IMG/VR virus record: IMGVR_UViG_2541047805_000004 | Source: a virus | Taxonomy: Duplodnaviria > Heunggongvirae > Uroviricota > Caudoviricetes | Reading direction: 5' to 3' (one strand) | Length of the DNA stretch: 16,123 nucleotides | Part shown: in pieces, positions 3,191 to 14,958 of the stretch | Layout: the number at the start of each line of letters is the position of its first letter | How positions within the stretch are numbered: position 1 is the first letter of the stretch | Made by a program: the position numbers and the translations under genes | The notes under the pieces: model-generated | The model's input: only the letters and a program-made list of their open reading frames with translations | Database searches by the model: none | Told to the model about the DNA's origin: nothing

Positions 3191-3248
3191 AGCAATTTAG
3201 ATAATCGTGCAGACTACGCCCCCCTCATATCACATGGAAGGTTTATCT

Positions 3249-3659
3249 ATGGATCAGGTAGTCATTTTTAAACAAATATTTGATAAAGTTCGAAACGATT
3301 TAAACTATCAATGGTTTTATTCTGAGCTAAAACGTCACAATGTCTCACATTACATTTACTATTTAGCCACAGAGAATGTTCATATTGTATTAAAAAATGA
3401 TAATACAGTGTTATTAAAGGGCCTAAAAAACATTGTGTCTGTCAAATTTTCAAAGGATAGGCATCTTATAGAAACGACCTCTAATAAGCTGAAATCCAGA
3501 GAGATCACATTTCAGGAATACAGAAGAAACCTTGCTAAAGCAGGAGTTTTTCGGTGGGTTACAAATATCCACGAACAAAAAAGATATTACTATACCTTTG
3601 ATAATTCATTACTCTTTACTGAAAACATACAGAGCACATCACAAATGTTTCCACACTAA
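3249..3659 (+). CDS. ybcV: DUF1398-family protein YbcV-like
   Basis: The ORF frame is open from 3207 (GTG). In-frame ATGs are at 3234 and 3249. The 3249 start has GGAAGG about 7 nt upstream and gives a 136-aa product, the length I recall for K-12 YbcV. It is 16 bp downstream of, and co-oriented with, the ylcI-like gene. Confidence 0.6.
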
Positions 3660-3961: not shown

Positions 3962-4486
3962 TCAATTAATCAGCAGTTCAGGCTGTGTCACCTGCAAGAT
4001 GTATTCATGCTCGACAGTCAGGACACGCTTCTCTTTCTTCCGTTCGTTCATTAACCGACTGCCGATCGTACCTTTCAGCTTTGAGCGTGTTTCTTTGATG
4101 GCGTAGCGGTGCTGCATTTCTTCGCCAATTGCCATGCGGCGGCTCAGTTGTTCTGCCATCCAGTTGAATGCTGCGATATAGCTCTCCTTGATTGCCGCAG
4201 CAGCTTTCCCGGTGAACCCCATCACAACCATGATCCAGCCATCTTTCGTCAGGCTGTACATCGGGCGAACCTTGCCCTGCTCATCGATATAATCAGCCGA
4301 CGCAAAATTGCGTTGGCTAAACTCACGCGAGCAATCAGCCTTAACCTGCTCGATTTTCCTGAGAACATCACCGTGTCGCTTGCCGAAGTACTTGGCAATT
4401 TTTCTGGATGTGGTAACGACCTCTCCGTTTTTGGCTTGCACCATTTCTCGGAAGTCGAAGGCTGGAATAACTGAATGATTATTCAT
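3962..4486 (-). CDS. Phage regulatory protein, Rha family (antirepressor-like)
   Basis: A 174-aa product from the ATG at 4486: MNNHSVIPAFDFREMVQAKNGEVVTTSRKIAKYFGKRHGDVLRKIEQ... This N-terminal signature is typical of the Rha/ORF6N domain family. The longer 255-aa ORF in the track has an N-terminal extension with no protein-like character. Confidence 0.6.
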   Translation of the reverse strand: MNNHSVIPAFDFREMVQAKNGEVVTTSRKIAKYFGKRHGDVLRKIEQVKADCSREFSQRNFASADYIDEQGKVRPMYSLTKDGWIMVVMGFTGKAAAAIKESYIAAFNWMAEQLSRRMAIGEEMQHRYAIKETRSKLKGTIGSRLMNERKKEKRVLTVEHEYILQVTQPELLIN

Positions 4487-4630
4487 AGCGTCTTTACCTT
4501 TTAGAAAGTGAGCCTGTCTCACAGAAAAGCCGCCCGAGAGAGGTCGCCACCTATAACGGCATTTCTCAGGCTCGCTTACTGAAAGGCTCTCGTTAATATG
4601 CGCGTGAGATGCGCTGTGAAATTCAGATAT

Positions 4631-4654
4631 AAAAAGCCCCGCGAATGCGAGGCT
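4631..4654 (-). terminator. Rho-independent terminator downstream of the lysis cassette (Rz/Rz1)
   Basis: The minus strand reads GCCTCGC ATTC GCGGGGC TTTTTAT: a 7-bp GC-rich stem (one G-U), a 4-nt loop and a T5 run. It lies about 175 nt after the Rz stop and about 145 nt before the Rha-like start. Confidence 0.6.
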
Positions 4655-4828
4655 AAATCCTGGTATTTGTAATGAACTGGCTCTTATCTCAACGCAGCCC
4701 CTTACTGCGCGCCAGATGCTCAATATCAAGCATCAGCAATGAGATGTTTAATCTGGATTTACTCCAGAAGTGATCACCACCCTGTCTACAGAGCCAGATG
4801 TGAAGGATGATGAGTAAAATTATCGCTA

Positions 4829-5296
4829 TCATCGAAGGCATTGCGTCCTAATGTATTCCTGAAGCGTTCTCAGTGCTGTTTGGTCGCGGATAATTCCGTC
4901 CCGGATATCGAGAACGTTTCGTCCAGCAACTGGAGAGAGTTCGACGGTGGCATCATTGCCCATGCCGGAGGCGCTGGAGGTTTCGGCAGAGGATGGCACA
5001 GGGCATTTTCCTTTGACGAGCACCCTGCCACCATTATCAAGCTTCCGCAGAAGAGCATCATTTTCAGCTTTCGCATCAGCTAACTCCTTCGTGTATTTTG
5101 CATCGAGCGCAGCAACATCACGCTGACGCATCTGCATGTCAGTAATTGCCGCGTTCGCCAGCTTCAGTTCTCTGACATTTTTGTCGCGCTGGGCTTTGTA
5201 GGTAATGGCGTTATCACGGTAATGATTAACAGCCCATGACAGGCAGACGATGATGCAGATAACCAGAGCGGAGATAATCGCGGTTACTCTGCTCAT
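4829..5296 (-). CDS. rzpD: Spanin inner-membrane subunit (Rz, i-spanin)
   Basis: [40 protein letters not shown]..., N-terminal TM followed by a coiled-coil; Rz-like. The ATG at 5296 overlaps the endolysin stop (ATGA). The track's longer ORF starts four codons upstream. Confidence 0.85.
4870..5076 (-). CDS. rzoD: Spanin outer-membrane lipoprotein subunit (Rz1, o-spanin), embedded in the +1 frame of Rz
   Basis: 68-aa ORF wholly inside Rz: [21 protein letters not shown]... It has a lipobox (VAGC) and a proline-rich [11 protein letters not shown] segment, typical of Rz1. Confidence 0.7.
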
Positions 5297-5790
5297 TGTT
5301 TCCCCCACAAACAGACTTCACGCTCAATCTCACGGCGAGTCATCAGTCCTTTCCATTGATTACCGCCAGCGTATGTCCAGCGCCGTAGCTGATCACATGC
5401 GCCTTTGATATCACCGTGGTTTATTTTGCGAAGAAGCGTCGATGTTCTGAAATTGCCAGCACCCACGTTGTAGACGAACGAGTAAAGAGCGCCGCGCGTT
5501 GTTTCCGGTATATCAACTTTTATGTACGGGTTAATTTGTCTGGCGACCGTGGCAAGGTCTTTATTCAGGAGGGCTTTGCATTCTGCTTTGGTATACGTTT
5601 TACCGAGCATGATGTCTTTTCCTGTATGCCCGTGACATACAGTCCATACACCAACAATATCTTTGTATGGTATGTAGCTGACACCTTCCAGACCATCGTT
5701 ACCACTTGGGCCAGTGATTAACACTGATGCTATAGCAATTGCTCCGCCACCAATAGCAGCAGCAACGGCTTTTCGTAATGATGGAGGCAT
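5293..5790 (-). CDS. rrrD: SAR endolysin (T4-lysozyme-like, GH24) of the phage 21 type
   Basis: 165-aa ORF whose N-terminal Gly/Ala-rich weakly hydrophobic segment ([18 protein letters not shown]) is a signal-anchor-release domain, followed by a lysozyme domain. I recognise it as DLP12 RrrD / phage 21 R. The ATG at 5790 overlaps the holin stop. Confidence 0.9.
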
Positions 5791-6005
5791 TATTCACCTC
5801 TCGCAGCCTTGCGCTTATCTTCTTTAATCTTGAAATAAAGGTTTGTCAGGTACGTCAGCAGGCCAAATACCAGGCTACCCAGCACACCTATTGCTGCCCA
5901 CTGTGAGGGCGTGACTTTATCGAGCAGCTGTAAAAACCAGTAACCGGCACTACCTGCTGAGGTGCCATAGGCGACACCCGTTGTTAACTTATCCATGGAT
6001 TTCAT
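5790..6005 (-). CDS. essD: Pinholin (S21-family holin) with dual-start motif
   Basis: [71 protein letters not shown]. It has two closely spaced starts (ATG at 6005 and 5996, Met-Lys-Ser-Met), characteristic of an antiholin/holin pair. The RBS GAGGTGG lies upstream of 6005. The track ORF extends 15 codons further upstream. Confidence 0.85.
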
Positions 6006-6594
6006 AACCCCACCTCGCAGACAAAGCGGGTGTAAATTGAGGGAATACAACGTATCGCAAAAAAGCAGAAACGTAACAGACTCGGAGTCAGTGAATAACT
6101 CAGGTATTGAGTTATCAGCTAATATCGAGACTCAAAAAATGGAAAAACCAGCTCGACGGCGGGTTTAAGCTGTGTGACGAAGTAACCACTCTTAACAGCA
6201 TAACCAATTTTTTACGTACGTAAACCACTGAATGATATTTATGAGAATGCTACCGAGTGTTCAAAACACCACCACAAATACATAAGAAAACCTCAACAAA
6301 TAACCAATAAATAATTTCCGGCGTTATTTTTAGTTAATTTAAATTAAACCATCGAATTATAGACCCCCCCATAAATAACAGCCATTAATATAAATTAGCT
6401 AATAGGTTTATTTTTGTTCAAATAAGAGCCATAAATAGGTTTCGATAGAAAAAGTTCAGATAAAAATAGAGATCTACTTCACAAATTAAATGAGAAACTA
6501 AAACTTACATCTTGAAATAATCACATTGATTAGATGAATATTTATCGCGCAGTGACATCATTTTTTAATAATAGTTCAAAAAAAAGGGCTCACG

Positions 6595-7677
6595 ATGAAA
6601 AAATTAACAGTGGCAATTTCTGCTGTAGCTGCATCAGTACTGATGGCGATGTCTGCTCAGGCAGCTGAAATTTATAATAAAGACAGTAACAAGCTGGATC
6701 TGTACGGGAAAGTTAATGCTAAGCACTACTTCTCCTCTAATGATGCAGATGATGGTGATACTACTTATGCCCGTCTTGGCTTCAAAGGTGAAACCCAAAT
6801 CAACGATCAACTGACTGGTTTCGGTCAGTGGGAATATGAATTCAAAGGCAACCGCGCTGAATCTCAAGGTTCCTCCAAAGATAAAACCCGTCTTGCCTTC
6901 GCTGGCCTGAAATTCGGTGACTACGGCTCCATCGATTACGGCCGTAACTACGGTGTAGCATACGACATCGGTGCGTGGACTGACGTCCTGCCAGAATTCG
7001 GTGGTGACACTTGGACTCAAACAGATGTGTTCATGACTGGTCGCACCACTGGTGTTGCAACTTATCGTAACAACGACTTCTTTGGTCTGGTTGATGGTCT
7101 GAACTTTGCTGCTCAGTATCAGGGTAAAAATGACCGCACTGACGTAACTGAAGCTAATGGTGATGGTTTCGGTTTCTCCACTACTTATGAGTATGAAGGA
7201 TTCGGTGTAGGTGCAACCTATGCTAAATCTGATCGCACTAATAATCAGGTTATCTACGGTAACAACGGTCTGAATGCTTCTGGTCAAAATGCTGAAGTAT
7301 GGGCAGCTGGTCTGAAATATGATGCGAACAACATCTATCTGGCCACCACCTATTCTGAAACCCAGAACATGACTGTTTTTGGTAATAACCATATTGCCAA
7401 CAAAGCACAAAACTTCGAAGCTGTTGCACAATATCAGTTCGACTTCGGCCTGCGTCCATCCGTTGCTTACCTGCATTCTAAAGGAAAAGACTTGGGTGTT
7501 TGGGGTGATCAGGACCTGGTTGAATATGTTGATGTAGGTGCAACCTATTACTTCAACAAAAATATGTCCACTTTTGTTGACTACAAAATCAACCTGATTG
7601 ATAAGAGCGATTTCACGAAAGCATCTGGCGTTGCTACCGATGATATCGTTGCTGTAGGTATGGTTTACCAGTTCTAA
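6595..7677 (+). CDS. nmpC: OmpC/OmpF-family general porin (NmpC/OmpD-like), apparently intact
   Basis: 360-aa ORF with signal peptide [23 protein letters not shown]|AEIYNKD, porin hallmarks throughout, and a C-terminal aromatic residue (…VYQF). AAGGG RBS before the ATG at 6595. It lies between Q and the holin on the opposite strand, the position of nmpC in DLP12. Confidence 0.9.
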
Positions 7678-7687
7678 TTTGATTACT

Positions 7688-7727
7688 AAAAGATATGTTG
7701 TGGGAGGCTTTGCCTCCCCAACATATA
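7688..7727 (-). terminator. Predicted tR'-like intrinsic terminator for the short late leader transcript
   Basis: The minus strand reads ATATGTTGGGGAGGC AAA GCCTCCCACAACATAT followed by CTTTTAG: a long GC-rich stem with a T-run. Its position about 100-170 nt downstream of Q is analogous to lambda tR'. Confidence 0.5.
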
Positions 7728-7789
7728 AGTGGCTCCCTCAAGCCACTTCCTTTAGAAGCACAACCTTGCTTCTAACTATACAAACCTTC

Positions 7790-7850
7790 TGTTATATATT
7801 ACCCTTTATTTTTGGGGGCGTTTCAACGCCCCATTTTTAATAACTTTTAG
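7790..7850 (-). promoter_or_regulatory. Predicted late promoter (pR'-like) and Q-utilisation region
   Basis: Immediately downstream of the Q stop, the minus strand has TTGAAA followed 18-19 nt later by TAATAT. Assigned by position and by analogy with lambdoid late regions; the exact start and pause site cannot be fixed from sequence alone. Confidence 0.3.
7814..7838 (+). terminator. Rho-independent terminator of the porin gene
   Basis: GGGGCGTT TCAA CGCCCC followed by ATTTTT on the + strand, about 140 nt after the porin stop. It overlaps the predicted late-promoter region on the opposite strand. Confidence 0.6.
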
Positions 7851-7865
7851 TAAATAATTGGCGTA

Positions 7866-8249
7866 TTAATTAGAGTTATTAACAACGATATCCATCTCTA
7901 ACCGGATATCTAATGCCATTAACATCCCTTCAATTATGCCCTCAGCCTTCTGTAACCTTTTCCCGATATAACCATCAGAGCAGCAATGCTTACCTGCCAG
8001 TGACATGAATGTCATACCGACTACATAATAATCTACTAATAAATCGTGCAAATCGCTGTTGTTCTTTTTCAGACGGGCCATGCACCCGCAAATGATCATC
8101 GCGTCATCGTCACAACATTGCGGGCGAGATTTTACTTTTGAAGGAATTAATCCCTTAAAACCGGCGGCAATGGACGACCAGGTCACATCTTCATGATTAT
8201 TAGCCGCCCACGCTCCCCAACGCTCAAGAACCATCTGAATATCACGCAT
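7866..8249 (-). CDS. quuD: Late-gene antiterminator Q (phage 82/21-type)
   Basis: 127-aa product from the ATG at 8249: [24 protein letters not shown]...[16 protein letters not shown]... (Cys-rich zinc-binding region). I recognise it as DLP12 QuuD. The track ORF starts five codons upstream. Confidence 0.85.
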
Positions 8250-8352
8250 CAACTTACTCCACAAAAATCAGACCAGAACGCCAATTACAAGCAAAAATCA
8301 ATAAAACAGTATTAGTTGATTGTTATCTCTGACTTCATACTCCTGCTCCTGT

Positions 8353-8472
8353 CAGGGTTTTGGCGTAATTCTTCAGTATTCGGTAATCGGTCAAAACAGA
8401 ACCGGGGAAACGATATAAGCGCAGACGCCCCCAGCGGTGGCGAAGAAGTTCTGCTATATTAAACTCAAACAT
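8353..8472 (-). CDS. ylcG: Small ORF, YlcG-like
   Basis: Hand translation from the ATG at 8472 (overlapping the rusA stop): [39 protein letters not shown]-stop, 39 aa. It is below the ORF-track size cutoff. Position between rusA and Q matches ylcG in DLP12. Confidence 0.4.
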
Positions 8473-8834
8473 CATTCATTCCCCATTTCGGTGATGGTCA
8501 GTTCCAGCCTCCCACCTTTGGTAACAGGCATCTTCACAACGCGGTAATCAACGACCTGAGCATCATCCAGCCAGAAACCTGCTTTAGTGAGTGCGTCAAA
8601 AGCGGCTTTTTGCAGATTATCCAGGTCACGGCGACGGCGATCCGGCATGTGGCACTCAATGCGGATTTTCACAGGCATAGCCAGGCCGATATCCAGCATT
8701 GCGCTTTTAATGATTCGGGCGACGTTATCGCGGTATGCCTGCCCCTCTGCACTGACGTGCGTGCGCCCGCGATTATGGCGGTAATAGCGATTATTGCTCG
8801 GAGGCCAGGGTAATGTGATACTGTAGGTATTCAC
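8472..8834 (-). CDS. rusA: Holliday junction resolvase RusA
   Basis: 120-aa [45 protein letters not shown]..., recognised as RusA. GTG start at 8834 overlapping the ybcO stop. Confidence 0.9.
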
Positions 8835-9121
8835 GCCTTAATAACCCCCTCTTTCAGCCAGATAACCTGTGTTCTCGCCATACCTTCCAGCGCGCATTCT
8901 TTTGCATATGCAGCATCGACAAAATGTGTGCGGCGGTCGATTTCGTCGTGGCAGGCAGAACATGCAATGGTGGCAATCAGGTCTGGCGGTTTGATACCGG
9001 TACCGCACAATCCAGCCAGCCGGATATGTGCCAGTACAGACGTTTCAGAATTGCCATTACATACGCCAGGGATTCTTACCTGGCATTCCCGACCACGCGC
9101 TGCTTTTCTCAAATCAGCCAT
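8831..9121 (-). CDS. ybcO: YbcO-like protein (DUF1364, putative metal-binding nuclease)
   Basis: 96-aa product from the ATG at 9121 with AAGGAGG RBS: [62 protein letters not shown]... (Cys/His cluster). The track ORF uses an upstream TTG. Confidence 0.8.
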
Positions 9122-9284
9122 GATTCCTCCTTGCTGCCAGTCGCAACCATTTTTTATCAACCAGGCTAGCGGTATATCCGAGCAGTGTTGGTATTTCGGA
9201 TGGCTTCAGCTCAGGCTTACGCTTACGACGATTTGATACTCTGTAGATGTGTCCGTTCATGACACGAATAAGCGGTGTAGCCAT
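9114..9284 (-). CDS. ninE: NinE-like small protein
   Basis: Hand translation from the ATG at 9284 (TAATG overlap with the ybcN stop): [56 protein letters not shown]-stop, 56 aa. It overlaps the ybcO start by 8 nt. Below the ORF-track cutoff. Confidence 0.6.
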   Translation of the reverse strand: MATPLIRVMNGHIYRVSNRRKRKPELKPSEIPTLLGYTASLVDKKWLRLAARRNHG

Positions 9285-9739
9285 TACGCCTCCTGCTTGT
9301 CGCGGAGCAGCTGGAACTCGCAGCTCTGCGGAATAGTCAGGTGGCAGCCAATATTCACCGCCCAGGCTTCAACCTTACACAGGAAGACATACATCTCTCC
9401 GGTATCAAGATCGGAGGTATGGCGTAACGACTGGATAGTGGTGATATCACCGGTTACGACATCAACCAGGTCTTTGGTTTCATAACCGAGATATGTGTGT
9501 TTGAGAGCATCTTTTACCCAAGCTGGAGTGGCGAACGTTTTACCCCTGCTGATGAGGTATTCACTGATTTCGCTGTACCACATGTGGCTGAGTGCATTCT
9601 GGGAAAGACTGCGTTTCTCACGCCACGGTTTAAGCACCATGCGAAAGCATTTGCCCTCCTCCAGATAAGGCTGGATCTGCCGACCGATAGCGGTGAAGTT
9701 GCCGCGATGTAATTTGATGCCGTCTTGTGAGAGGTTCAC
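9284..9739 (-). CDS. ybcN: NinB-family recombination protein (YbcN-like)
   Basis: 151-aa ORF with GTG start at 9739 and GGAGGTG RBS 5 nt upstream. It contains ...[22 protein letters not shown]..., resembling the NinB core. Confidence 0.8.
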
Positions 9740-9837
9740 GCTTCACCTCCGCAGAGGTCAAACGCTAGATGCAAAGAATTGCAGGTGCATTTCTGCATCT
9801 GTGAAGGGAGAAGAGAGTTTGGATTGTATGTGCGCAT
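9736..9837 (-). CDS. ylcH: Small ORF (33 aa), possibly YlcH-like
   Basis: Hand translation from the ATG at 9837: [33 protein letters not shown]-stop. Length and position (between ybcM and ybcN) match ylcH of DLP12, but the sequence itself has no recognisable features and coding potential is uncertain. Confidence 0.25.
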
Positions 9838-9860
9838 AAACGTCCCCGTTTAGCGCAGAA

Positions 9861-9889
9861 GTCACCGGAGTTGTTCAGGCTCCGGTGAC
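9861..9889 (-). terminator. GC-rich stem-loop downstream of ybcM (possible terminator with weak U-tract)
   Basis: gtcaccggag ttgttcagg ctccggtgac: a perfect 10-bp stem with a 9-nt loop, about 65 nt after the ybcM stop. The T-run is poor on both strands. Confidence 0.3.
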
Positions 9890-9953
9890 ATAATTATGCC
9901 GTGTTGATTTCCCAAAATCAAAATCGATAGAATTGCTCCTTCTTAAAACACTT

Positions 9954-10751
9954 TTACTCTCTGGAAGCTTTTCTTATCTCTCTTGGTGTTATATTAAAAC
10001 GATTATGAAATCTTTCAGTAAAACGAGAAGGACACTTATAACCATTTTCTCTGGCAATCTCGCTTATAGGTTTTACCGTCGTTTGTATAGCAGACAACGC
10101 ATTATTTAACCTCACATCGTCCAGTATACTTTGGAAACTTACCCCCTCGCTTGCTAGACGGCGATGTAATGTAGAAACAGAAATGTAGAGATATCGAGCA
10201 ACCTTGTTTGCTGTCCATTTTGTGCCGGGTTCGGATAGCAGCAGGTTATAACAACGACTTATCAATGATTGTTTACTATATGATAAAAGTAAATGATTAA
10301 CATGATTCACTCCTAACGAAAGTAGAACGCCCATTGCTAAGTGCTCCTGAATTTTAGTTGAGAAGCCTCGGGAAACAGATGTTTTTAGTTGCTCCCAACA
10401 ATATATTAACTCAGGATTCTGAGGTAAAAAGAAACTTGTTTTGTTACGTATTTGATCAGTTACCGTATAAAGTTTTTGGAAACTCTCAATTAAATCAATG
10501 GGTAAGTAAAGCATTTCTGCAAGATAAAGCCCTGCTTCAGGATAATTCTCAATATAAAATTCATAACCACAAGGAAATAATATTATTTGATTATTATCAA
10601 CAGTTAAAGTATGCGTCTCCCAATTGATAACTTTCTTTCCCTGACGGATACGACACAAAGCTGGCATAAGAGGCTTAACCCTATGAATCTCATGATGTTT
10701 ATGCATCCGTATTTCTTCGATCTTTAAGTTAGTCTTACCTCTTGCCAGCAT
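9954..10751 (-). CDS. ybcM: AraC/XylS-family transcriptional regulator
   Basis: 265-aa ORF. The C-terminal region (...[41 protein letters not shown]...[29 protein letters not shown]) is a typical AraC-type double-HTH domain. Low GC. ATG at 10751. Confidence 0.85.
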
Positions 10752-10760
10752 ACTCTCACC

Positions 10761-11312
10761 CTACTTTATCTCATAAACTGGTGTTATCTCAGCGGTTGCG
10801 ATTTTATTAGCATTAAGCATATAACCAACTAACGCTCCGCTGGAGTTAGAATCTACAGGAATCTTTTCAGTTTTTAGAGCCCATACTTTAAACTGGTAAT
10901 GATGTGGTTTATCTCCTTTAGGAGGACATGCGCCACCAAACCCAGCATAGCCAAAATCATTTCGGCCTTGAACAGCACCAGTCGGCAGTTTTGTTCCATC
11001 ACGTCTCCCTGCATCAACGGGCAAATATGTTATTGTTGCTGGAATATTAACAACAGTCCAATGCCACCAACCACTGCCTGTAGGTGCATCTGGATCATAT
11101 ACAGTTACGGCAAAGCTTTTGGTACCTTCAGGAACACCAGACCAGGTTAATGAGGGCGATGTATTACCACCTTCACACCCAAATCCAGAAAAGACATGAG
11201 ACGTTGTAAGTTGCTCTCCTGTTTTTATTTCATTACTAGTGACCTGAAATGCTGCAGCCTGCGCAGAAAATGTTATGAATGCCAATACAGTTGAAACGAT
11301 AAGTGTTTTCAT
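10761..11312 (-). CDS. ybcL: Periplasmic PEBP/RKIP-family protein (YbcL-like)
   Basis: 183-aa ORF with signal peptide MKTLIVSTVLAFITFSAQA|AAFQ. It has the PEBP-like motif region ...VYDPDAPTGSGWWHW...HHYQFKVWAL. AAGAGG RBS. It is 10 bp upstream of ybcM in the same orientation, so the two probably form an operon. Confidence 0.85.
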   Translation of the reverse strand: MKTLIVSTVLAFITFSAQAAAFQVTSNEIKTGEQLTTSHVFSGFGCEGGNTSPSLTWSGVPEGTKSFAVTVYDPDAPTGSGWWHWTVVNIPATITYLPVDAGRRDGTKLPTGAVQGRNDFGYAGFGGACPPKGDKPHHYQFKVWALKTEKIPVDSNSSGALVGYMLNANKIATAEITPVYEIK

Positions 11313-11528
11313 AAAAACCTCTTTGTTATGACCTATCGTTATTTTATTTGATATTCCTTTATCTCATTATGCATAAAGGCGCAATGTTTATGCAAAAGCA
11401 ATCACAATTGTACCCCCAACCCAATTATTTGCCACAATATACACAAAGCACATTGATACTATCTAAAAACTCTGCTTTATTATTAGTAATACCTACGAAA
11501 GTCGGTGTTATTTTTTAACCTACCATTC

Positions 11529-11578
11529 AAAATACGTGACATACACCATTTTGCTCATAATAATTTGTCACGTATTTT
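11529..11578. repeat. 50-bp element: perfect 13-bp inverted repeats (AAAATACGTGACA / TGTCACGTATTTT) flanking a 24-bp AT-rich spacer
   Basis: Read directly from the sequence: 11529-11541 and 11566-11578 are exact reverse complements. It lies in the intergenic region between the ybcK stop (11777) and the ybcL start (11312). Confidence 0.8.
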
Positions 11579-11776
11579 CAGTATTTGAATCTGCGACCAA
11601 GAGTTCTCACCTAACAAATGATTAAGATTGTATAGCTCATTTACTACCCCAATACAGCCGTACAAAACTCGCTTGTGGGAGCAAACAAAGTAATTACCCA
11701 TTAAGTTTCGTCAAAGATAATTAATTCTGTCTTGCACTTTATCACCATAGCATAACTTAAAATCCGAGATCATTAT

Positions 11777-13303
11777 TTAGAAATAAATCTCACCATCAAC
11801 CATATATTTGAGAGCACTTATCGCCTGCTGGGCGGATATTACTTTCATTAAAGGATAGTGTTTAAAAACAATGCCATTCATAAAATAGATATCACAGGTT
11901 TTATTATCCGTATTAATTATGATTTTTTCGAATGTTTTATAGGCAAGTGTACGGCATAACTCTCGTCCATTTTTACTGGTTAAGTCAATAGCATAAAAAT
12001 CACTGAATGAATTTACACCTTTACTCTTCAAAGTTTTCAATGATACCGAAGCCCTTCGTAATTCCTTATCTAATAGTCTTATTTTCTCTGCTATAGCGGT
12101 AACTTCAGGCGCGACAGACAATGCAACGATTAAATTATTAATTTTCATCTGAAGCTCAATAATTTTTAACTCTAAAGTTTCATTAGCATCTTTCTTGTTT
12201 TCAACTGGTTGAATTTTGCTACAATTAAAAAGCAATTCATTAATGATATTATAATCAACCAAATCTCTTTTTATTGATGGCCTGTCACATCGATGTAATC
12301 TTCTCATCGGACAAACATAATAGCCATGCAAACTTCCAGATACCGCATGAACAATCATGGTATTACCACAAGCCTCACACTTCATAACTGTTCGAAGTAG
12401 ATTTATTAGCATAGGATTCTTGCTACTATTGCTAATACCAAAAGGTGCCAACCGAATTTCCTGTACAGCGTAAAACAAATCATCTGATATAACTCTGGGA
12501 TAATAGCCAGCGATTTCACTTATCCCTTTCCCTCTTGCACGATATGAAGGTACGCATATACCTATCAGAGCTTTATTCGCTAATAATTTTTCAATTACAG
12601 AAGGTCCCCATGCACTTTCTTTTCCTGAGAAATTCTTTACAGCATGATCATTTAAATACTTGGCTATTGCATTCAATGAGCGCCTTTCCATCCTGAGTTT
12701 AAAAATTAGCTCAATAGTTTTCACCCTGTCGGGGTCTGGAACAAAAGCCGTTCTTTTGTCATCTAAGGAGAGCCATCTCGGACAAGACGCCGTCATAATC
12801 GTACCTGATTCCATTGCATCCTGCCGTTTTTTCTTCCATGATAATTTAACCCGACTTGACTTTATCTCGCTTTCTTCATTTGCCCTTTGTGCTATAAGTA
12901 TGGCTTTTATTAATGAATATGGCTCATTCAAAGAGTCAATATTATAGACTGTATTGTCGCAAAGAGTTATAACATCAATACCGTGATTCAAAATCAATTT
13001 CAGACGTTCAATCGCTTCACCGACTTTTTCTCTTGAAAGTCTGTCCAGACTTTCAACTAACAATGTAGTTCCTGGCAATATATAACCATGCTCTATAGCA
13101 TCTAAAAATTCCGAAAAAGCTCCTGATTGTGCATGCTTTCCTTTGAATGCACTTAATCCTAAATCTTCATATGTTATGGTATCAAGATAATAATCACTAT
13201 TTACCTTTAACCATTCAGCAATAAGTCTTCTCTGTCGGTTTAATGAGTCACCAGACATCTGACCTGGTGATGAAAATCGCATATATGCTATGGCTTTTTT
13301 CAT
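11777..13303 (-). CDS. ybcK: Large serine recombinase (resolvase/invertase N-terminal catalytic domain plus recombinase and zinc-ribbon domains)
   Basis: 508-aa ORF. N-terminus AIAYMRFSSPGQ (catalytic Ser context) and LVESLDRLSRE (resolvase motif); a C-terminal Cys cluster (CEACGNTM...YYVCPMRRLHRCD) followed by a coiled-coil-like region. Very low GC. ATG at 13303 with AGGTG RBS. Confidence 0.85.
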   Translation of the reverse strand: MKKAIAYMRFSSPGQMSGDSLNRQRRLIAEWLKVNSDYYLDTITYEDLGLSAFKGKHAQSGAFSEFLDAIEHGYILPGTTLLVESLDRLSREKVGEAIERLKLILNHGIDVITLCDNTVYNIDSLNEPYSLIKAILIAQRANEESEIKSSRVKLSWKKKRQDAMESGTIMTASCPRWLSLDDKRTAFVPDPDRVKTIELIFKLRMERRSLNAIAKYLNDHAVKNFSGKESAWGPSVIEKLLANKALIGICVPSYRARGKGISEIAGYYPRVISDDLFYAVQEIRLAPFGISNSSKNPMLINLLRTVMKCEACGNTMIVHAVSGSLHGYYVCPMRRLHRCDRPSIKRDLVDYNIINELLFNCSKIQPVENKKDANETLELKIIELQMKINNLIVALSVAPEVTAIAEKIRLLDKELRRASVSLKTLKSKGVNSFSDFYAIDLTSKNGRELCRTLAYKTFEKIIINTDNKTCDIYFMNGIVFKHYPLMKVISAQQAISALKYMVDGEIYF

Positions 13304-13487
13304 GGTGACACCTGCTAACGTATGCTTTTATAAACCTTAGTGGTGGGATATAATTTTTGTTTAATTTTTATTTAAAAAGACAATTAAGGTCACATTATCT
13401 TGAATATACAACAATAATCGTATTGCAATTTTCTTACGCCATAATCTTGAAAGCACAAAAGAATACATAAAAAATAAAGACATTAAC

Positions 13488-13527
13488 AAAAAGCATAAAA
13501 CGAGGCTCATATAAATATAAGAGCCTC
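13488..13527 (-). terminator. Predicted rho-independent terminator of emrE
   Basis: About 30 nt after the emrE stop, the minus strand reads GAGGCTC...(12-nt AT loop)...GAGCCTC followed by GTTTTATGCTTTTTG. The stem is 7 bp with a long loop, so this is a moderate call. Confidence 0.45.
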
Positions 13528-13557
13528 CATATTTTAGTCGTTTAGAAACAAATTATT

Positions 13558-13890
13558 TTAATGTGGTGTGCTTCGTGACAATAAATTAATAACCAACACA
13601 CCGGCACAAATCAACATCATGCCTATAATGGCTGGCAGGTCCAGCCGTTGGCCGAAAAATCCCCATGACAGTAAACTAATCAGGACAATACCGACTCCTG
13701 ACCAGATAGCATAAGCAATCCCTGTAGGAATATAAGCCAGCGTCTGAGCTAATAACCAGAATGATGCACAATAACAAATAATTGTACCAACAGATGGCCA
13801 TAACCGTGTAAAACCTTCTGAAAACTTCATTAAGGTTGTACCAATGACCTCTGCAAGTATTGCACCACCAAGATAAATATAAGGGTTCAT
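13558..13890 (-). CDS. emrE: SMR-family multidrug efflux transporter EmrE
   Basis: 110-aa product from the ATG at 13890 (AGGAAAG RBS): MNPYIYLGGAILAEVIGTTLMKFSEGFTRLWPSVGTIICYCASFWLLAQTLAYIPTGIAYAIWSGVGIVLISLLSWGFFGQRLDLPAIIGMMLICAGVLVINLLSRSTPH. Four TM helices and the conserved membrane-embedded Glu (AEVIG). The track ORF includes an upstream in-frame extension. Confidence 0.9.
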   Translation of the reverse strand: MNPYIYLGGAILAEVIGTTLMKFSEGFTRLWPSVGTIICYCASFWLLAQTLAYIPTGIAYAIWSGVGIVLISLLSWGFFGQRLDLPAIIGMMLICAGVLVINLLSRSTPH

Positions 13891-13905
13891 AGCATATTCT
13901 TTCCT

Positions 13906-13940
13906 GTTCAAACTGGAGAGAATTGTACTACAGTTTGAAC
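13906..13940 (-). promoter_or_regulatory. Perfect 10-bp stem / 15-nt loop hairpin immediately upstream of the emrE RBS
   Basis: gttcaaactg (13906-13915) and cagtttgaac (13931-13940) are exact reverse complements. On the minus strand the hairpin ends about 1 nt before the emrE Shine-Dalgarno and lies 18-50 nt after the ren stop. Confidence 0.5.
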
Positions 13941-13957
13941 TCAACTCACCTGTTTCA

Positions 13958-14260
13958 TCATTGTGTTCCCATTGATGTTCTTTTATATACCCTCAATACC
14001 CGTTTCATCGCGGCACTCTGGCGACACTCCTTAAAAATCAGATTCGTGCTCACCTTTCCTTCCCGTTCTTCTCTGGTAGCGAACCGGTAATACACCGTTC
14101 GCCAGACCTTACCATCAACGACCAGGATTCCTGCCCGCGCCATTTTAGCCGCAGCCTGATTTATGCTGGTTACGGTTGCGCCTGTTACCGCGGCAACGTC
14201 CTGTGCACAGAAGCTCTTATGCGTCCCCAGGTAATGAATAATTGCCTCTTTGCCCGTCAT
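13958..14260 (-). CDS. ren: Ren protein (lambda Ren-like)
   Basis: 100-aa ORF MTGKEAIIHYLGTHKSFCAQDVAAVTGATVTSINQAAAKMARAGILVVDGKVWRTVYYRFATREEREGK..., recognised as lambda Ren. The ATG at 14260 overlaps the P stop, as in lambda. Confidence 0.85.
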   Translation of the reverse strand: MTGKEAIIHYLGTHKSFCAQDVAAVTGATVTSINQAAAKMARAGILVVDGKVWRTVYYRFATREEREGKVSTNLIFKECRQSAAMKRVLRVYKRTSMGTQ

Positions 14261-14958
14261 ACACTTGCTCCTTTCAGTCCGAACTTAGCTTTAATTTCTG
14301 CGATCTTCGCCAGAGCCTGTGCACGATTTAGAGGTCTACCGCCCATAACAGGAAGTTGTTTTACTGGTTCAGGTATCGTCTCACCACGGTTAATTCGCGC
14401 TGTCATACAGGTCAGTTCATCGGCAGCCTTGCGCCGTAATTCCGCGTCAGTCAGCGCATTGGCCCGCATGTTCTGGTACAAGTTGGTAACCAACCAGTAA
14501 TGCGCGTTCGATTTCCACGGATAAGACTCTGCATCCGGATACAGGCCACGCTTCCGGCAATACTCGTAAACCATATCAACCAGCTCGCTGACGTTTGGCA
14601 GCCCGGCGTTAACAGATGCTTCTTCCCGGCACCAGGCGACAAACTGCCCGGGTGATGGCAGGAATGGTCGATTCTGCCGACGGGCTACGCGCATTCCAGC
14701 GTTAACCTGTTCCATTGTGGTGATCCCGTTTTCCCGGAAAGCCAGAACCCACTGGCGGCGGATTTCGTTCAGTTCATTCTGGTCACGGTTAGCCAGGCTC
14801 GCCGGGAAAGTTGCCAGTAACTGGCTTAACACACCGTTGATGATCTGCGCTACCTGCTGTACCTGTGGCTTTTCGTCGTACTGTTCCGGCATGTTGTTGG
14901 CGATCCGGCGCATCTGCTCACAGTCAAAGTTAACCATCTGTGCGGCGATGTTTTTCAT
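14257..14958 (-). CDS. P: Replication protein P (DnaB helicase loader), apparently full length
   Basis: 233-aa ORF MKNIAAQMVNFDCEQMRRIANNMPEQYDEKPQVQQVAQIINGV...KAKFGLKGASV, recognised as lambda P at lambda P length. The ATG at 14958 overlaps the end of the O reading frame. Confidence 0.9.
   Translation of the reverse strand: MKNIAAQMVNFDCEQMRRIANNMPEQYDEKPQVQQVAQIINGVLSQLLATFPASLANRDQNELNEIRRQWVLAFRENGITTMEQVNAGMRVARRQNRPFLPSPGQFVAWCREEASVNAGLPNVSELVDMVYEYCRKRGLYPDAESYPWKSNAHYWLVTNLYQNMRANALTDAELRRKAADELTCMTARINRGETIPEPVKQLPVMGGRPLNRAQALAKIAEIKAKFGLKGASV

Follow-up and report, generated by a model that had tools for sequence, protein, structure and literature searches.

A porin cassette between the Q gene and a predicted distal pR'-type late promoter in a DLP12-type lambdoid prophage

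A porin cassette very probably separates the antiterminator gene Q from its cognate, distal late promoter in the viral DNA analysed here (the window, 16,123 nucleotides, IMG/VR record IMGVR_UViG_2541047805_000004), and late transcription would then diverge from the porin gene. The inserted segment would be a lysogenic-conversion cassette in a variable slot, made up of a porin promoter, an nmpC/lc-type porin gene, a 166-nt IpeX-type 3' UTR and an intrinsic terminator. The porin is predicted to be transcribed on the plus strand from its own sigma-70 promoter, with an end at 7815-7841. Q would be made from the early operon on the minus strand, and would act in trans at a 933W/H-19B-type pR' at 6224-6189 (minus strand) with a start near 6190. 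From there, the late transcript would run past a leader hairpin at 6166-6134 and then through the holin, endolysin and Rz genes. Because this start would lie 370 bp upstream of the porin ATG and run away from it, the porin should be insulated from Q-dependent transcription. The features concerned are the following.

4829-5308, minus strand: gene for the Rz spanin (PF03245)
5293-5790, minus strand: gene for the endolysin (PF00959)
5790-6005, minus strand: gene for an S21-type holin with a dual start (MKSMDK; PF04971, E 3.5e-35), its ATG taken from comparison with K-12 essD
6134-6166, minus strand: candidate tR', formed by the first hairpin and U-tract in the late leader; its Stx-phage homologue is the first terminator annotated after pR'
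6189-6224, minus strand: predicted pR'-type late promoter of the Q933W/H-19B kind, from Stx-phage homology, conservation and covariation with the Q clade
6224-6211, minus strand: dyad TTTACGTACGTAAA, the predicted Q-binding element, overlapping the -35
6202-6197, minus strand: -10 TATGCT
6194-6182, minus strand: invariant TAAGAGTGGTTAC, with the predicted start near A6190 inside it
6396-6594, plus strand: region of the porin promoter and 5' UTR, the counterpart of K-12 PnmpC (-199..-1)
6595-7677, plus strand: intact general porin gene of the NmpC/Lc type, 360 aa (Pfam PF00267, Porin_1)
7678-7843, plus strand: porin 3' UTR of 166 nt, a homologue of the IpeX sRNA region, with four stem-loops of which the last is the terminator
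7693-7727, both strands: strong hairpin, the first stem-loop of the 3' UTR on the plus strand
7815-7841, plus strand: intrinsic terminator of the porin/IpeX transcript, GGGGCG-loop-CGCCCC and then AUUUUUAAU
7866-8249, minus strand: gene for a Q antiterminator of the QuuD/Q933W family, 127 aa from the ATG at 8249 (PF06530, E 1e-53)

By synteny with K-12, the window is a DLP12-type lambdoid prophage and the orthologue of K-12 DLP12, with 99.2% identity over 6.5 kb of the emrE-quuD segment. The same block was found in 35 sequenced phage genomes, some of them plaque-forming, and in 2393 of 5426 complete E. coli genomes (~44%). A preliminary description of this DNA had reported an intact OmpC-family porin gene on the opposite strand in the slot between Q and the holin gene, and this is confirmed: the gene at 6595-7677 lies between a QuuD-type Q and an S21-type holin gene. 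A Pfam search matched the full PF00267 profile (1-337/337) to residues 29-360 with E 3e-152. A signal peptide is present, and the product ends in ...VYQF, namely with a C-terminal Phe; this full-length domain, the signal peptide, the terminal Phe, the Q-lysis position and the opposite strand mark it as an NmpC/Lc-type prophage porin. Its closest PDB relatives are OmpK37, OmpC and PhoE, and it is 91% identical to the K-12 NmpC fragments. Disruption of the K-12 gene by IS5 had been stated correctly as well: nmpC is split there by IS5B, which is present in K-12 DLP12 together with an IS3 in renD, and both insertions are absent from the window. Related loci encode porins of 360 or 365 aa with 90.7-100% identity, and most of the differences fall in the 3' half, where variability is 0.05-0.13 among 70 unique relatives. 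The porin/Q/lysis arrangement is ordinary, known biology, that is, the prophage gene nmpC/lc with an IpeX tail; nmpC/lc in the Q-S region, the IS5 disruption in K-12 and the IpeX RNA were all known previously. As close to half of the complete E. coli genomes have the block, the porin finding itself adds little.

The Q protein of the window is 99% identical to K-12 QuuD and 79% identical to an Stx-phage Q, and with its PF06530 match it belongs to the Q933W/H-19B/QuuD type. The gene is intact and at least 98.5% conserved across 80 loci. Q21 in the PDB is a distant relative (E 7e-8 over 80 residues), and pR' of phage 21 was dropped as a reference since the window Q is only remotely related to Q21. 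The open reading frame of Q reaches 8264, the real ATG being at 8249, and that of the holin extends to a TTG at 6050. This position, given earlier as a start coordinate, is merely the TTG start of a mechanical open reading frame, and the holin ATG is really at 6005.

Evidence for a late promoter on the holin side of the porin comes first from homology. The minus-strand segment 6225-6143 has matches at 76-88% identity (E down to 4e-16; BLAST, 2.3 Gb) immediately behind Q in many Stx phages, H-19B and VT2-Sakai among them. In an annotated Stx phage, whose Q is the one 79% identical to that of the window, the aligned part takes in the pR' promoter as well as the first terminator. For Sakai Sp5, dRNA-seq has located the pR' start, and Term-seq has placed tR' 258 nt downstream of it (PMC7547250). 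Counting back this 258-nt spacing from tR', with the Sakai coordinates of PMC7547250 referring to version 1 of the genome record, places the Sp5 start in TAAGAG just after the -10 TATCAT, equivalent to 6189-6192 of the window. The invariant initial transcribed sequence TAAGAGTGGTTAC is present; no clear -10-like hexamer was assigned as a promoter-proximal pause element. We infer promoter activity, a start site near 6190 and binding of Q to the dyad from these sequence relationships. In K-12, a fragment across the nmpC-essD spacer drives a lux reporter (PMC7918800), and by primer mapping this "-121 to +650" fragment corresponds to about -650 to +121 relative to the essD ATG. Two other candidates were discarded: a start site ~48 bp upstream of the porin ATG taken from the same fragment, as primer mapping gives no start site, and a sigma-E-like GAACT-N16-TCACT upstream of the porin ATG, which was unsupported.

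Conservation and covariation point to the same place. Across 70 unique Q-to-holin segments, variability falls to 0.001-0.014 in the nearly invariant 6220-6101 (0.001 for 6220-6181), versus 0.05-0.10 in its flanks; no other non-coding segment of the block is as conserved as 6224-6134. The pR' motif occurs once in the window. It was found in 119 IMG/VR loci, 97 of which reach far enough upstream to show Q, and every Q found is of this family. Measured in the 97 loci from where the Q match ends, the motif lies 20 to 2479 nt away, and whatever this distance, the dyad at about -40 to -20 co-varies with the Q clade (11 clusters). The dyad types are TTTAC[GA][TA][AT]CGTA in 46 loci, GCGGTCCGCA in 24 and ACGCGTACGCA in 16, with further types in other loci. 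A promoter homologous to a mapped pR' and carrying a predicted Q-specific element is thereby located at 6224-6189 on the minus strand, away from Q.

The preliminary description had placed pR' right after Q (~7796-7838, minus strand), overlapping 7814-7838, with 7727-7688 as tR', so that any Q-antiterminated transcript must cross the porin antisense and the two transcription units would interfere with each other. This is very improbable. It is true that pR' directly follows Q in lambda, 21 and 82 and adjoins it in Stx phages, and that TTGAAA-N19-TAATAT exists on the minus strand, with a strong hairpin and a U4 tract ~70 nt downstream. However, this best minus-strand match near Q (9/12 consensus matches) has an unfavourable 19-bp spacer, is missing from the standard promoter scan and has several competitors that score at least as well. 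The loop of the terminator hairpin supplies its "-35", where the segment varies most (TTGAGA, TTGAAA, TTGCAA or TTGAAG among 79 loci). Comparison of the Q-proximal region with pR'-tR' of Sp5, the sole mapped pR' compared, gave no convincing alignment. Neither normal spacing, conserved hexamers nor homology to a known pR' was found for the Q-proximal pair, and the family motif with a Q-matched dyad occurs only at 6182-6224 and accompanies Q in 97 loci despite inserts of up to 2.5 kb. Consensus scoring cannot separate the two candidates, the distal promoter having 8/12 matches with a 16-bp spacer, no better than the Q-proximal site. Since the late promoter most likely lies beyond the porin and does not adjoin Q, a clash between late and porin transcription is unlikely.

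Phage 1H12 speaks for a promoter next to Q. Its Q is 89% identical to that of the window, the distal motif is lacking, and a promoter-like TATGAT and a tR'-like terminator come directly after Q. Thus, the Q family has more than one arrangement of the late promoter region. Other loci with a 1H12-like Q have the distal motif. The shared ATATAACAG after Q of 1H12 was rejected as a sign of a Q-proximal pR', as in alignment the segment falls on the Stx pR' transcript, in its 3' part and tR'.

The spacer next to Q behaves like plus-strand RNA in its pattern of substitution, because its loops vary, its stems stay and G.U wobble is tolerated on the plus strand only: an A-to-G polymorphism in 26 of 79 loci preserves a G.U pair solely in the plus-strand RNA. 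This maintenance of stems also argues against a pR' adjoining Q. The 3' UTR folds at -58.5 kcal/mol (z -8.5) into four stable stem-loops, has a variability of 0.009-0.04 among 70 unique relatives, and is 96-97% identical to the K-12 quuD-nmpC spacer, where IpeX was described. A review gives IpeX as an RNA of 167 nt that is processed out of the porin mRNA (PMC12197685), and as a prophage sRNA it lowers OmpC and OmpF (Castillo-Keller et al., 2006, via PMC12197685, PMC5069750, PMC3333887). The window counterpart measures 166 nt from the porin stop codon to the terminator U-tract, against the published 167 nt; it lies directly 3' of the stop codon and ends in an intrinsic terminator, as expected for IpeX. 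It is a putative IpeX precursor, and if processed it may act as in K-12 and PA-2, where IpeX lowers both porins. Rfam, having no usable IpeX/StxS model, gave no match at the gathering threshold over the whole window or at E <= 1 over 5950-7950, and ipeX is absent from the RefSeq feature table of K-12. The link of the Q-porin spacer to IpeX had been missed in the preliminary description.

At the end of this region, the stem-loop at 7815-7832 (plus strand), followed by ATTTTTAAT, is the sole intergenic canonical intrinsic terminator in a scan of 5700-8400 (-13.9 kcal/mol, z -3.4); its stem is conserved and its loop variable in 79 related loci. The porin terminator proposed at 7814-7838 is therefore real and on the plus strand, at 7815-7832, but its overlap with a late promoter is unsupported. 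In the same way, the hairpin taken as tR' at 7688-7727 is real and strong, but it is not tR', since the cognate pR'-type site lies beyond the porin. On the minus strand the hairpin at 7693-7727 folds at -22.7 kcal/mol (z -6.6) and is followed by CUUUUAG (U4-5); on the plus strand no U-tract follows. It could stop minus-strand read-through out of the Q operon. With a late start at 6190, the 3' end of the porin would be reachable only by early or Q read-through, and the 7727-7693 hairpin with its U-tract would be well placed to stop it.

Such read-through is the basis of another possible conflict, in which N-antiterminated or read-through Q transcripts run antisense into the porin during lytic growth, with the Q-dependent start still separate at 6190. 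We consider this possible though rather unlikely. The Q and porin genes face each other across only 188 bp, and the 7727-7693 hairpin with its U-tract is oriented against minus-strand transcripts. In lambda, N-modified polymerase reads through intrinsic terminators and would ignore such a structure, and the block is also found in plaque-forming phages. On the other hand, ins5CB-dependent IS5 transposition, a read-out of antisense transcription, did not change measurably when a strong terminator was placed in the K-12 nmpC/quuD spacer (PMC11677980), which argues for little antisense read-through in uninduced cells. Moreover, the element is the DLP12 orthologue, and interference would be relevant only after induction, when the cell is doomed.

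The nmpC gene is reportedly quiescent. In K-12, loss of the -199..-1 interval abolishes nmpC-driven transcription, and an nmpC/IS5 fusion mRNA was detected via 5' RACE (PMC11677980). Variability at 6461-6620 of the window is just 0.002-0.005 among 70 unique relatives. As the K-12 nmpC promoter is active (PMC11677980), it is plausible that the window gene gives a functional alternative porin.

On the other side of the predicted promoter, the leader hairpin allele of the window has a C.U mismatch in its stem and folds at -8.4 kcal/mol (z 0.7), versus -14.3 for the K-12 allele and -21.9 for Sp5. Two alleles, GCTGG and GCGGG, split 42:37 in 79 loci. The mapped tR' of Sp5 is the second terminator, 258 nt downstream of the start, and has no counterpart in the window. 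The hairpin at 6166-6134 is a candidate Q-dependent terminator rather than a secure assignment. The lysis genes of a largely defective prophage might instead be driven mainly by the host factors RpoE and Hha, with the promoter at 6190 as a relic, an improbable reading. The lysis cassette is said to be controlled by Q(DLP12) and RpoE. RpoE and Hha are indeed listed as regulators of the DLP12 essD operon, but the same list includes a Q-type antiterminator (PMC7918800). Also, the nearly invariant 6220-6101 is identical in functional phages, and the intact Q gene is conserved to the degree given above; both argue against a relic.

Beyond the distal promoter of this prophage, a wider reading is that the Q-promoter junction of QuuD/Q933W lambdoid phages is a dedicated cargo bay, with the dyad as Q-binding element and hairpin alleles as a means of tuning. 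Taken jointly, we give these three parts even chances. Inserts between Q and pR' have 0.6-2.5 kb and a low G+C content, and most lie on the opposite strand; genes for porins, a lipoprotein and an esterase are among them, as are candidate defence genes (KAP NTPase PDC-S20, HNH-like PDC-M68A and an NYN nuclease). Insertion appears to remove the ancestral C-terminus of Q. The Q-clade dyad would be a hitherto uncharacterised Q-binding element, palindromic unlike the direct repeat of Q21, and basal lysis-gene expression might be tuned by the weak leader hairpin allele, which is common. In practice, pR' of a QuuD/Q933W-type Q should be located by the conserved motif and the Q-matched dyad and not by nearness to Q, a correction relevant to models of porin expression, Shiga-toxin-type late regulation and prophage lysis genes. 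The Q-to-pR' gap, as a hotspot for host-affecting and probable defence cargo, is also a practical lead for prophage mining.

Among known systems, lc of phage PA-2 and nmpC of DLP12 are lysogenic-conversion porins in the same type of Q-lysis slot, and in K-12 DLP12 (qsr') the position and orientation of quuD, porin and essD are those of the window. The Stx phages 933W, Sp5 and H-19B have the same Q family and share with the window the -10 region, the initial transcribed sequence, the first hairpin and the dyad type TTTACG[TA][AT]CGTAAA. In Stx phages, the 3' end of the Q gene and pR' overlap, the motif lying 17 nt from the Q stop codon (20 nt from the end of the tblastn match), whereas in the window 1.67 kb of cargo lies between Q and the pR'-type motif. 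The window has no equivalent of the 258-nt leader of Stx phages, with the mapped tR' and the 3' part of StxS (the pR' transcript of these phages); here only ~185 nt separate the predicted start from the holin ATG. As for phage 21, Q21 shares PF06530 with the window Q, and the holin, endolysin and Rz of the window are of the phage 21 type. The Q-QBE, loading and loaded complexes of Q21 have been solved. In the Q21 QBE, two 8-bp subsites form a direct repeat (bioRxiv 10.1101/651190), whereas the element that co-varies with Q in the window family is a dyad.

The minus strand carries the late genes of the window (ORF listing and Pfam), and an intact OmpC-family porin gene lies between Q and the holin gene on the opposite strand, as the preliminary description stated:

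8831-9160, minus strand: ybcO (ORF listing/Pfam)
8472-8834, minus strand: rusA (ORF listing/Pfam)
7866-8264, minus strand, real ATG at 8249: Q antiterminator, PF06530
6595-7677, plus strand: intact porin gene, 360 aa, full-length Porin_1 domain (Pfam, E 3e-152)
6224-6211, minus strand: dyad element TTTACGTACGTAAA
6202-6197, minus strand: TATGCT, -10 of the predicted distal promoter
5790-6050, minus strand, real ATG at 6005 as judged from K-12 essD: S21-type holin
5293-5790, minus strand: lysozyme (ORF listing/Pfam)
4829-5308, minus strand: Rz spanin (ORF listing/Pfam)

Other genes are emrE, ybcK, ybcL, ybcM and a lambda-P gene. By BLAST, the K-12 DLP12 region matches 6.5 kb of the window (7636-14171) at 99.2% identity and the porin-lysis part at 92%. 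The window has neither the IS5 in nmpC nor the IS3 in renD; K-12 nmpC is indeed split by IS5B. The window is therefore orthologous to the cryptic prophage DLP12, with an uninterrupted nmpC. Its lambda-P replication gene is intact (233 aa, 14257-14958, minus strand), whereas just the pseudogene remnant peaD is left in K-12 DLP12; with this gene and a renD free of IS3, the prophage copy is less decayed than that of K-12. On the 3' side of Rz, a Rha-family regulator gene (PF09669; region 3962-4729, minus strand) stands in place of DLP12 borD; next comes a ybcV-like DUF1398 gene that shares just 81% identity with K-12 (region 3207-3659, plus strand). This stretch is a mosaic junction inside the DLP12 orthologue.

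The late promoter had been placed between Q and the porin gene (TTGAAA-N19-TAATAT, minus strand), overlapping the porin terminator, so that any Q-antiterminated transcript must cross the porin gene antisense. This site was not recovered by a standard promoter scan, and it ties with several others under a relaxed score. Its -35 is the terminator hairpin loop, and no part of the segment varies more among 79 related loci. In a distant BLAST search with the porin-holin spacer, 6225-6143 (minus strand) matched the sequence that directly follows Q in hundreds of Stx phages, among them H-19B and VT2-Sakai; in one phage annotated for both features, the matching stretch takes in pR' as well as the first terminator. 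The Q of that Stx phage shares 79% identity with the window Q, which is related only remotely to Q21. For Sakai Sp5, dRNA-seq located the pR' start and Term-seq placed tR' 258 nt further on (PMC7547250). Counted back from tR', the Sp5 start falls in TAAGAG, 7 nt past the -10 TATCAT, which corresponds to A6190 (+/- 2) of the window. The 13-mer initial transcribed sequence TAAGAGTGGTTAC has a single copy in the window. Across 70 unique Q-to-holin segments, 6220-6101 hardly varies (0.001-0.014 per site), against 0.05-0.10 in its flanks and 0.05-0.13 in the porin 3' half. A K-12 fragment, found by mapping its primers to span the whole nmpC-essD spacer, drove a lux reporter (PMC7918800). The predicted distal promoter yielded no assignable sigma-dependent pause hexamer. 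Q-modified polymerase would most likely start at about 6190, beyond the porin gene, and head away from it. On this reading it need not cross the porin gene antisense; the porin terminator is real (7815-7832), but pR' would not overlap it.

That terminator (-13.9 kcal/mol, z -3.4), followed by AUUUUUAAU on the plus strand, is the sole canonical intergenic one in 5700-8400. The hairpin at 7693-7727 (-22.7 kcal/mol, z -6.6), previously read as tR' (7688-7727), is also real and lies in the porin 3' UTR, of which it is the first stem-loop rather than tR'. A U4 tract follows it on the minus strand, and there it could terminate read-through of the early Q transcript. The Q-porin spacer (7678-7865) shares 96-97% identity with its K-12 quuD-nmpC counterpart and folds as plus-strand RNA into four stem-loops (-58.5 kcal/mol, z -8.5). 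IpeX, a 167-nt RNA of DLP12 and PA-2, is processed out of the porin transcript (PMC12197685) and lowers OmpC and OmpF (PMC12197685; PMC8065619; PMC5069750; PMC3333887). By homology, size and position the spacer probably corresponds to IpeX, for which Rfam has no model. Among the 79 related loci the loops vary and the stems are retained; an A-to-G change in the third stem (26/79) gives a G.U pair in plus-strand RNA and a C.A mismatch in minus-strand RNA. The kept stems and this plus-strand-only pairing indicate that the structures are maintained for the porin/IpeX transcript. A promoter-like CTAACT-N17-TATATT, a consensus match only, lies inside the 3' UTR upstream of the last stem-loop (7772-7800, plus strand) and could produce the IpeX 3' end as a short transcript of its own.

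Convergent transcription could still arise from N-antiterminated early transcripts of an intact phage in lytic growth. However, an antisense-dependent read-out in K-12 did not change detectably when a strong terminator was put into the nmpC/quuD spacer (PMC11677980). Overall, the porin moron of the preliminary description stands, and its transcription geometry is not supported.

Downstream of the predicted distal start, the leader hairpin (6166-6134) has a C.U mismatch in the window allele, and the leader folds at -8.4 kcal/mol (z 0.7), versus -14.3 for the K-12 allele and -21.9 for Sp5. At 6141-6166 (minus strand) the window allele GCTGG, weakly folded, occurs in 42/79 loci and the K-12-type GCGGG, with a perfect 8-bp stem, in 37/79; this polymorphism might alter basal read-through into the lysis genes. 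No further terminator was found in the 185-nt leader; the mapped tR' of Sp5 is a second terminator, without counterpart in the window.

A motif scan of the collection for TAAGAGTGGTTAC gave 119 loci. An upstream Q was identifiable in 97, always of the window's Q family; the other 22 mostly end close to the motif. The Q proteins formed 11 clusters at 75% identity (the largest with 46, 24 and 16 loci), and the element at about -40..-20 tracks the Q clade exactly across the 97 loci. It is TTTAC[GA][TA][AT]CGTA in the 46 loci of cluster 0, with Q of K-12, Sp5 and H-19B types (whose porin-class members match the window Q at 98.5-100% identity), GCGGTCCGCA in the 24 SfIV-like loci, ACGCGTACGCA in the 16-locus cluster, CTTGTGTTATAACA in a 5-locus cluster, and TTGTGGAATTCCA, TTCGTTACGAA and CCGCGGGCCGCA in single loci. 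The element follows the Q clade while TAAGAGTGGTTAC stays unchanged in all clades, as a binding site for Q should behave; this dyad of the 933W-type pR' is probably the Q-binding element of the family.

In the Stx type the motif lies 20 nt beyond the end of the Q match; elsewhere this gap measures 41-70, about 630, 806-864, 1104-1196, 1440-1710 or 2278-2479 nt, with the porin class at 1671-1690 nt, within the 1440-1710 group. In Sp5 the Q stop codon falls within the dyad element (AGTTTACGATCGTAA); the window retains GGTTTACGTACGTAA, and its Q homology to Sp5 ends directly after RLEMD. The cargo therefore entered an ancestral Q gene at its 3' end. This cargo extends over about 6227-7889, with a lower bound of about 6263 if weak, uncertain similarity is counted. 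The gap forms a variable slot for cargo, 0.6-2.5 kb long with G+C of 0.31-0.44, in IMG/VR loci L090, L091, L093, L095, L103, L106, L107, L120, L126, L128, L131, L137, L141, L162, L182, L189, L190, L199 and L200, with the main genes on the opposite strand in 17/19 insert classes. Among the cargo products are a KAP NTPase that matches PADLOC PDC-S20 (E 1e-177), an HNH-like PDC-M68A, a NYN-domain protein, an alpha/beta hydrolase and a small lipoprotein, besides several proteins without family; the slot also houses candidate defence genes.

The 3.7-kb Q-porin-lysis block is carried at 93-98% identity by 35 sequenced phages, including PhiR70_1, ev099, ev243 and mEp332, and 2393 of 5426 complete E. 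coli genomes match at least 80% of a 2.6-kb query. Among 80 IMG/VR loci with Q at least 98.5% identical to that of the window, 78 have a full-length porin (360 or 365 aa) in the same orientation after Q; of the other two, L006 breaks off within the porin gene and L170, from the motif scan, likewise has a porin. Their porin alleles are 90.7-100% identical. In otherwise near-identical blocks the proteins differ by up to 9% (360 or 365 aa), mostly within the gene's 3' half (7100-7660), with Q, 3' UTR and promoter regions nearly invariant, a pattern that would fit diversifying selection, or recombination, acting on surface loops. Many such prophage porins are labelled 'ompC' in RefSeq, a possible source of error in porin typing. 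The porin promoter interval -199..-1 is active in K-12 (PMC11677980) and nearly invariant at 6396-6594 in the 70 unique segments; expression of the window's intact porin is therefore plausible.

This biology is already known, namely nmpC/lc, IpeX and the 933W-type pR'. The cargo slot with its candidate defence genes and the Q-clade-covarying dyad are by-products perhaps worth a short follow-up. Phage 1H12 (L002, NC_049947; 2302-2983), with a Q 89% identical to that of the window, has the lipocalin gene blc next to Q on the opposite strand, a terminator resembling Stx-phage tR' directly after Q, and no TAAGAGTGGTTAC motif anywhere between Q and holin. Members of the Q family do not all share one plan. 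The predicted Q-binding element of the window is palindromic, whereas the reported Q21 element is a direct repeat.
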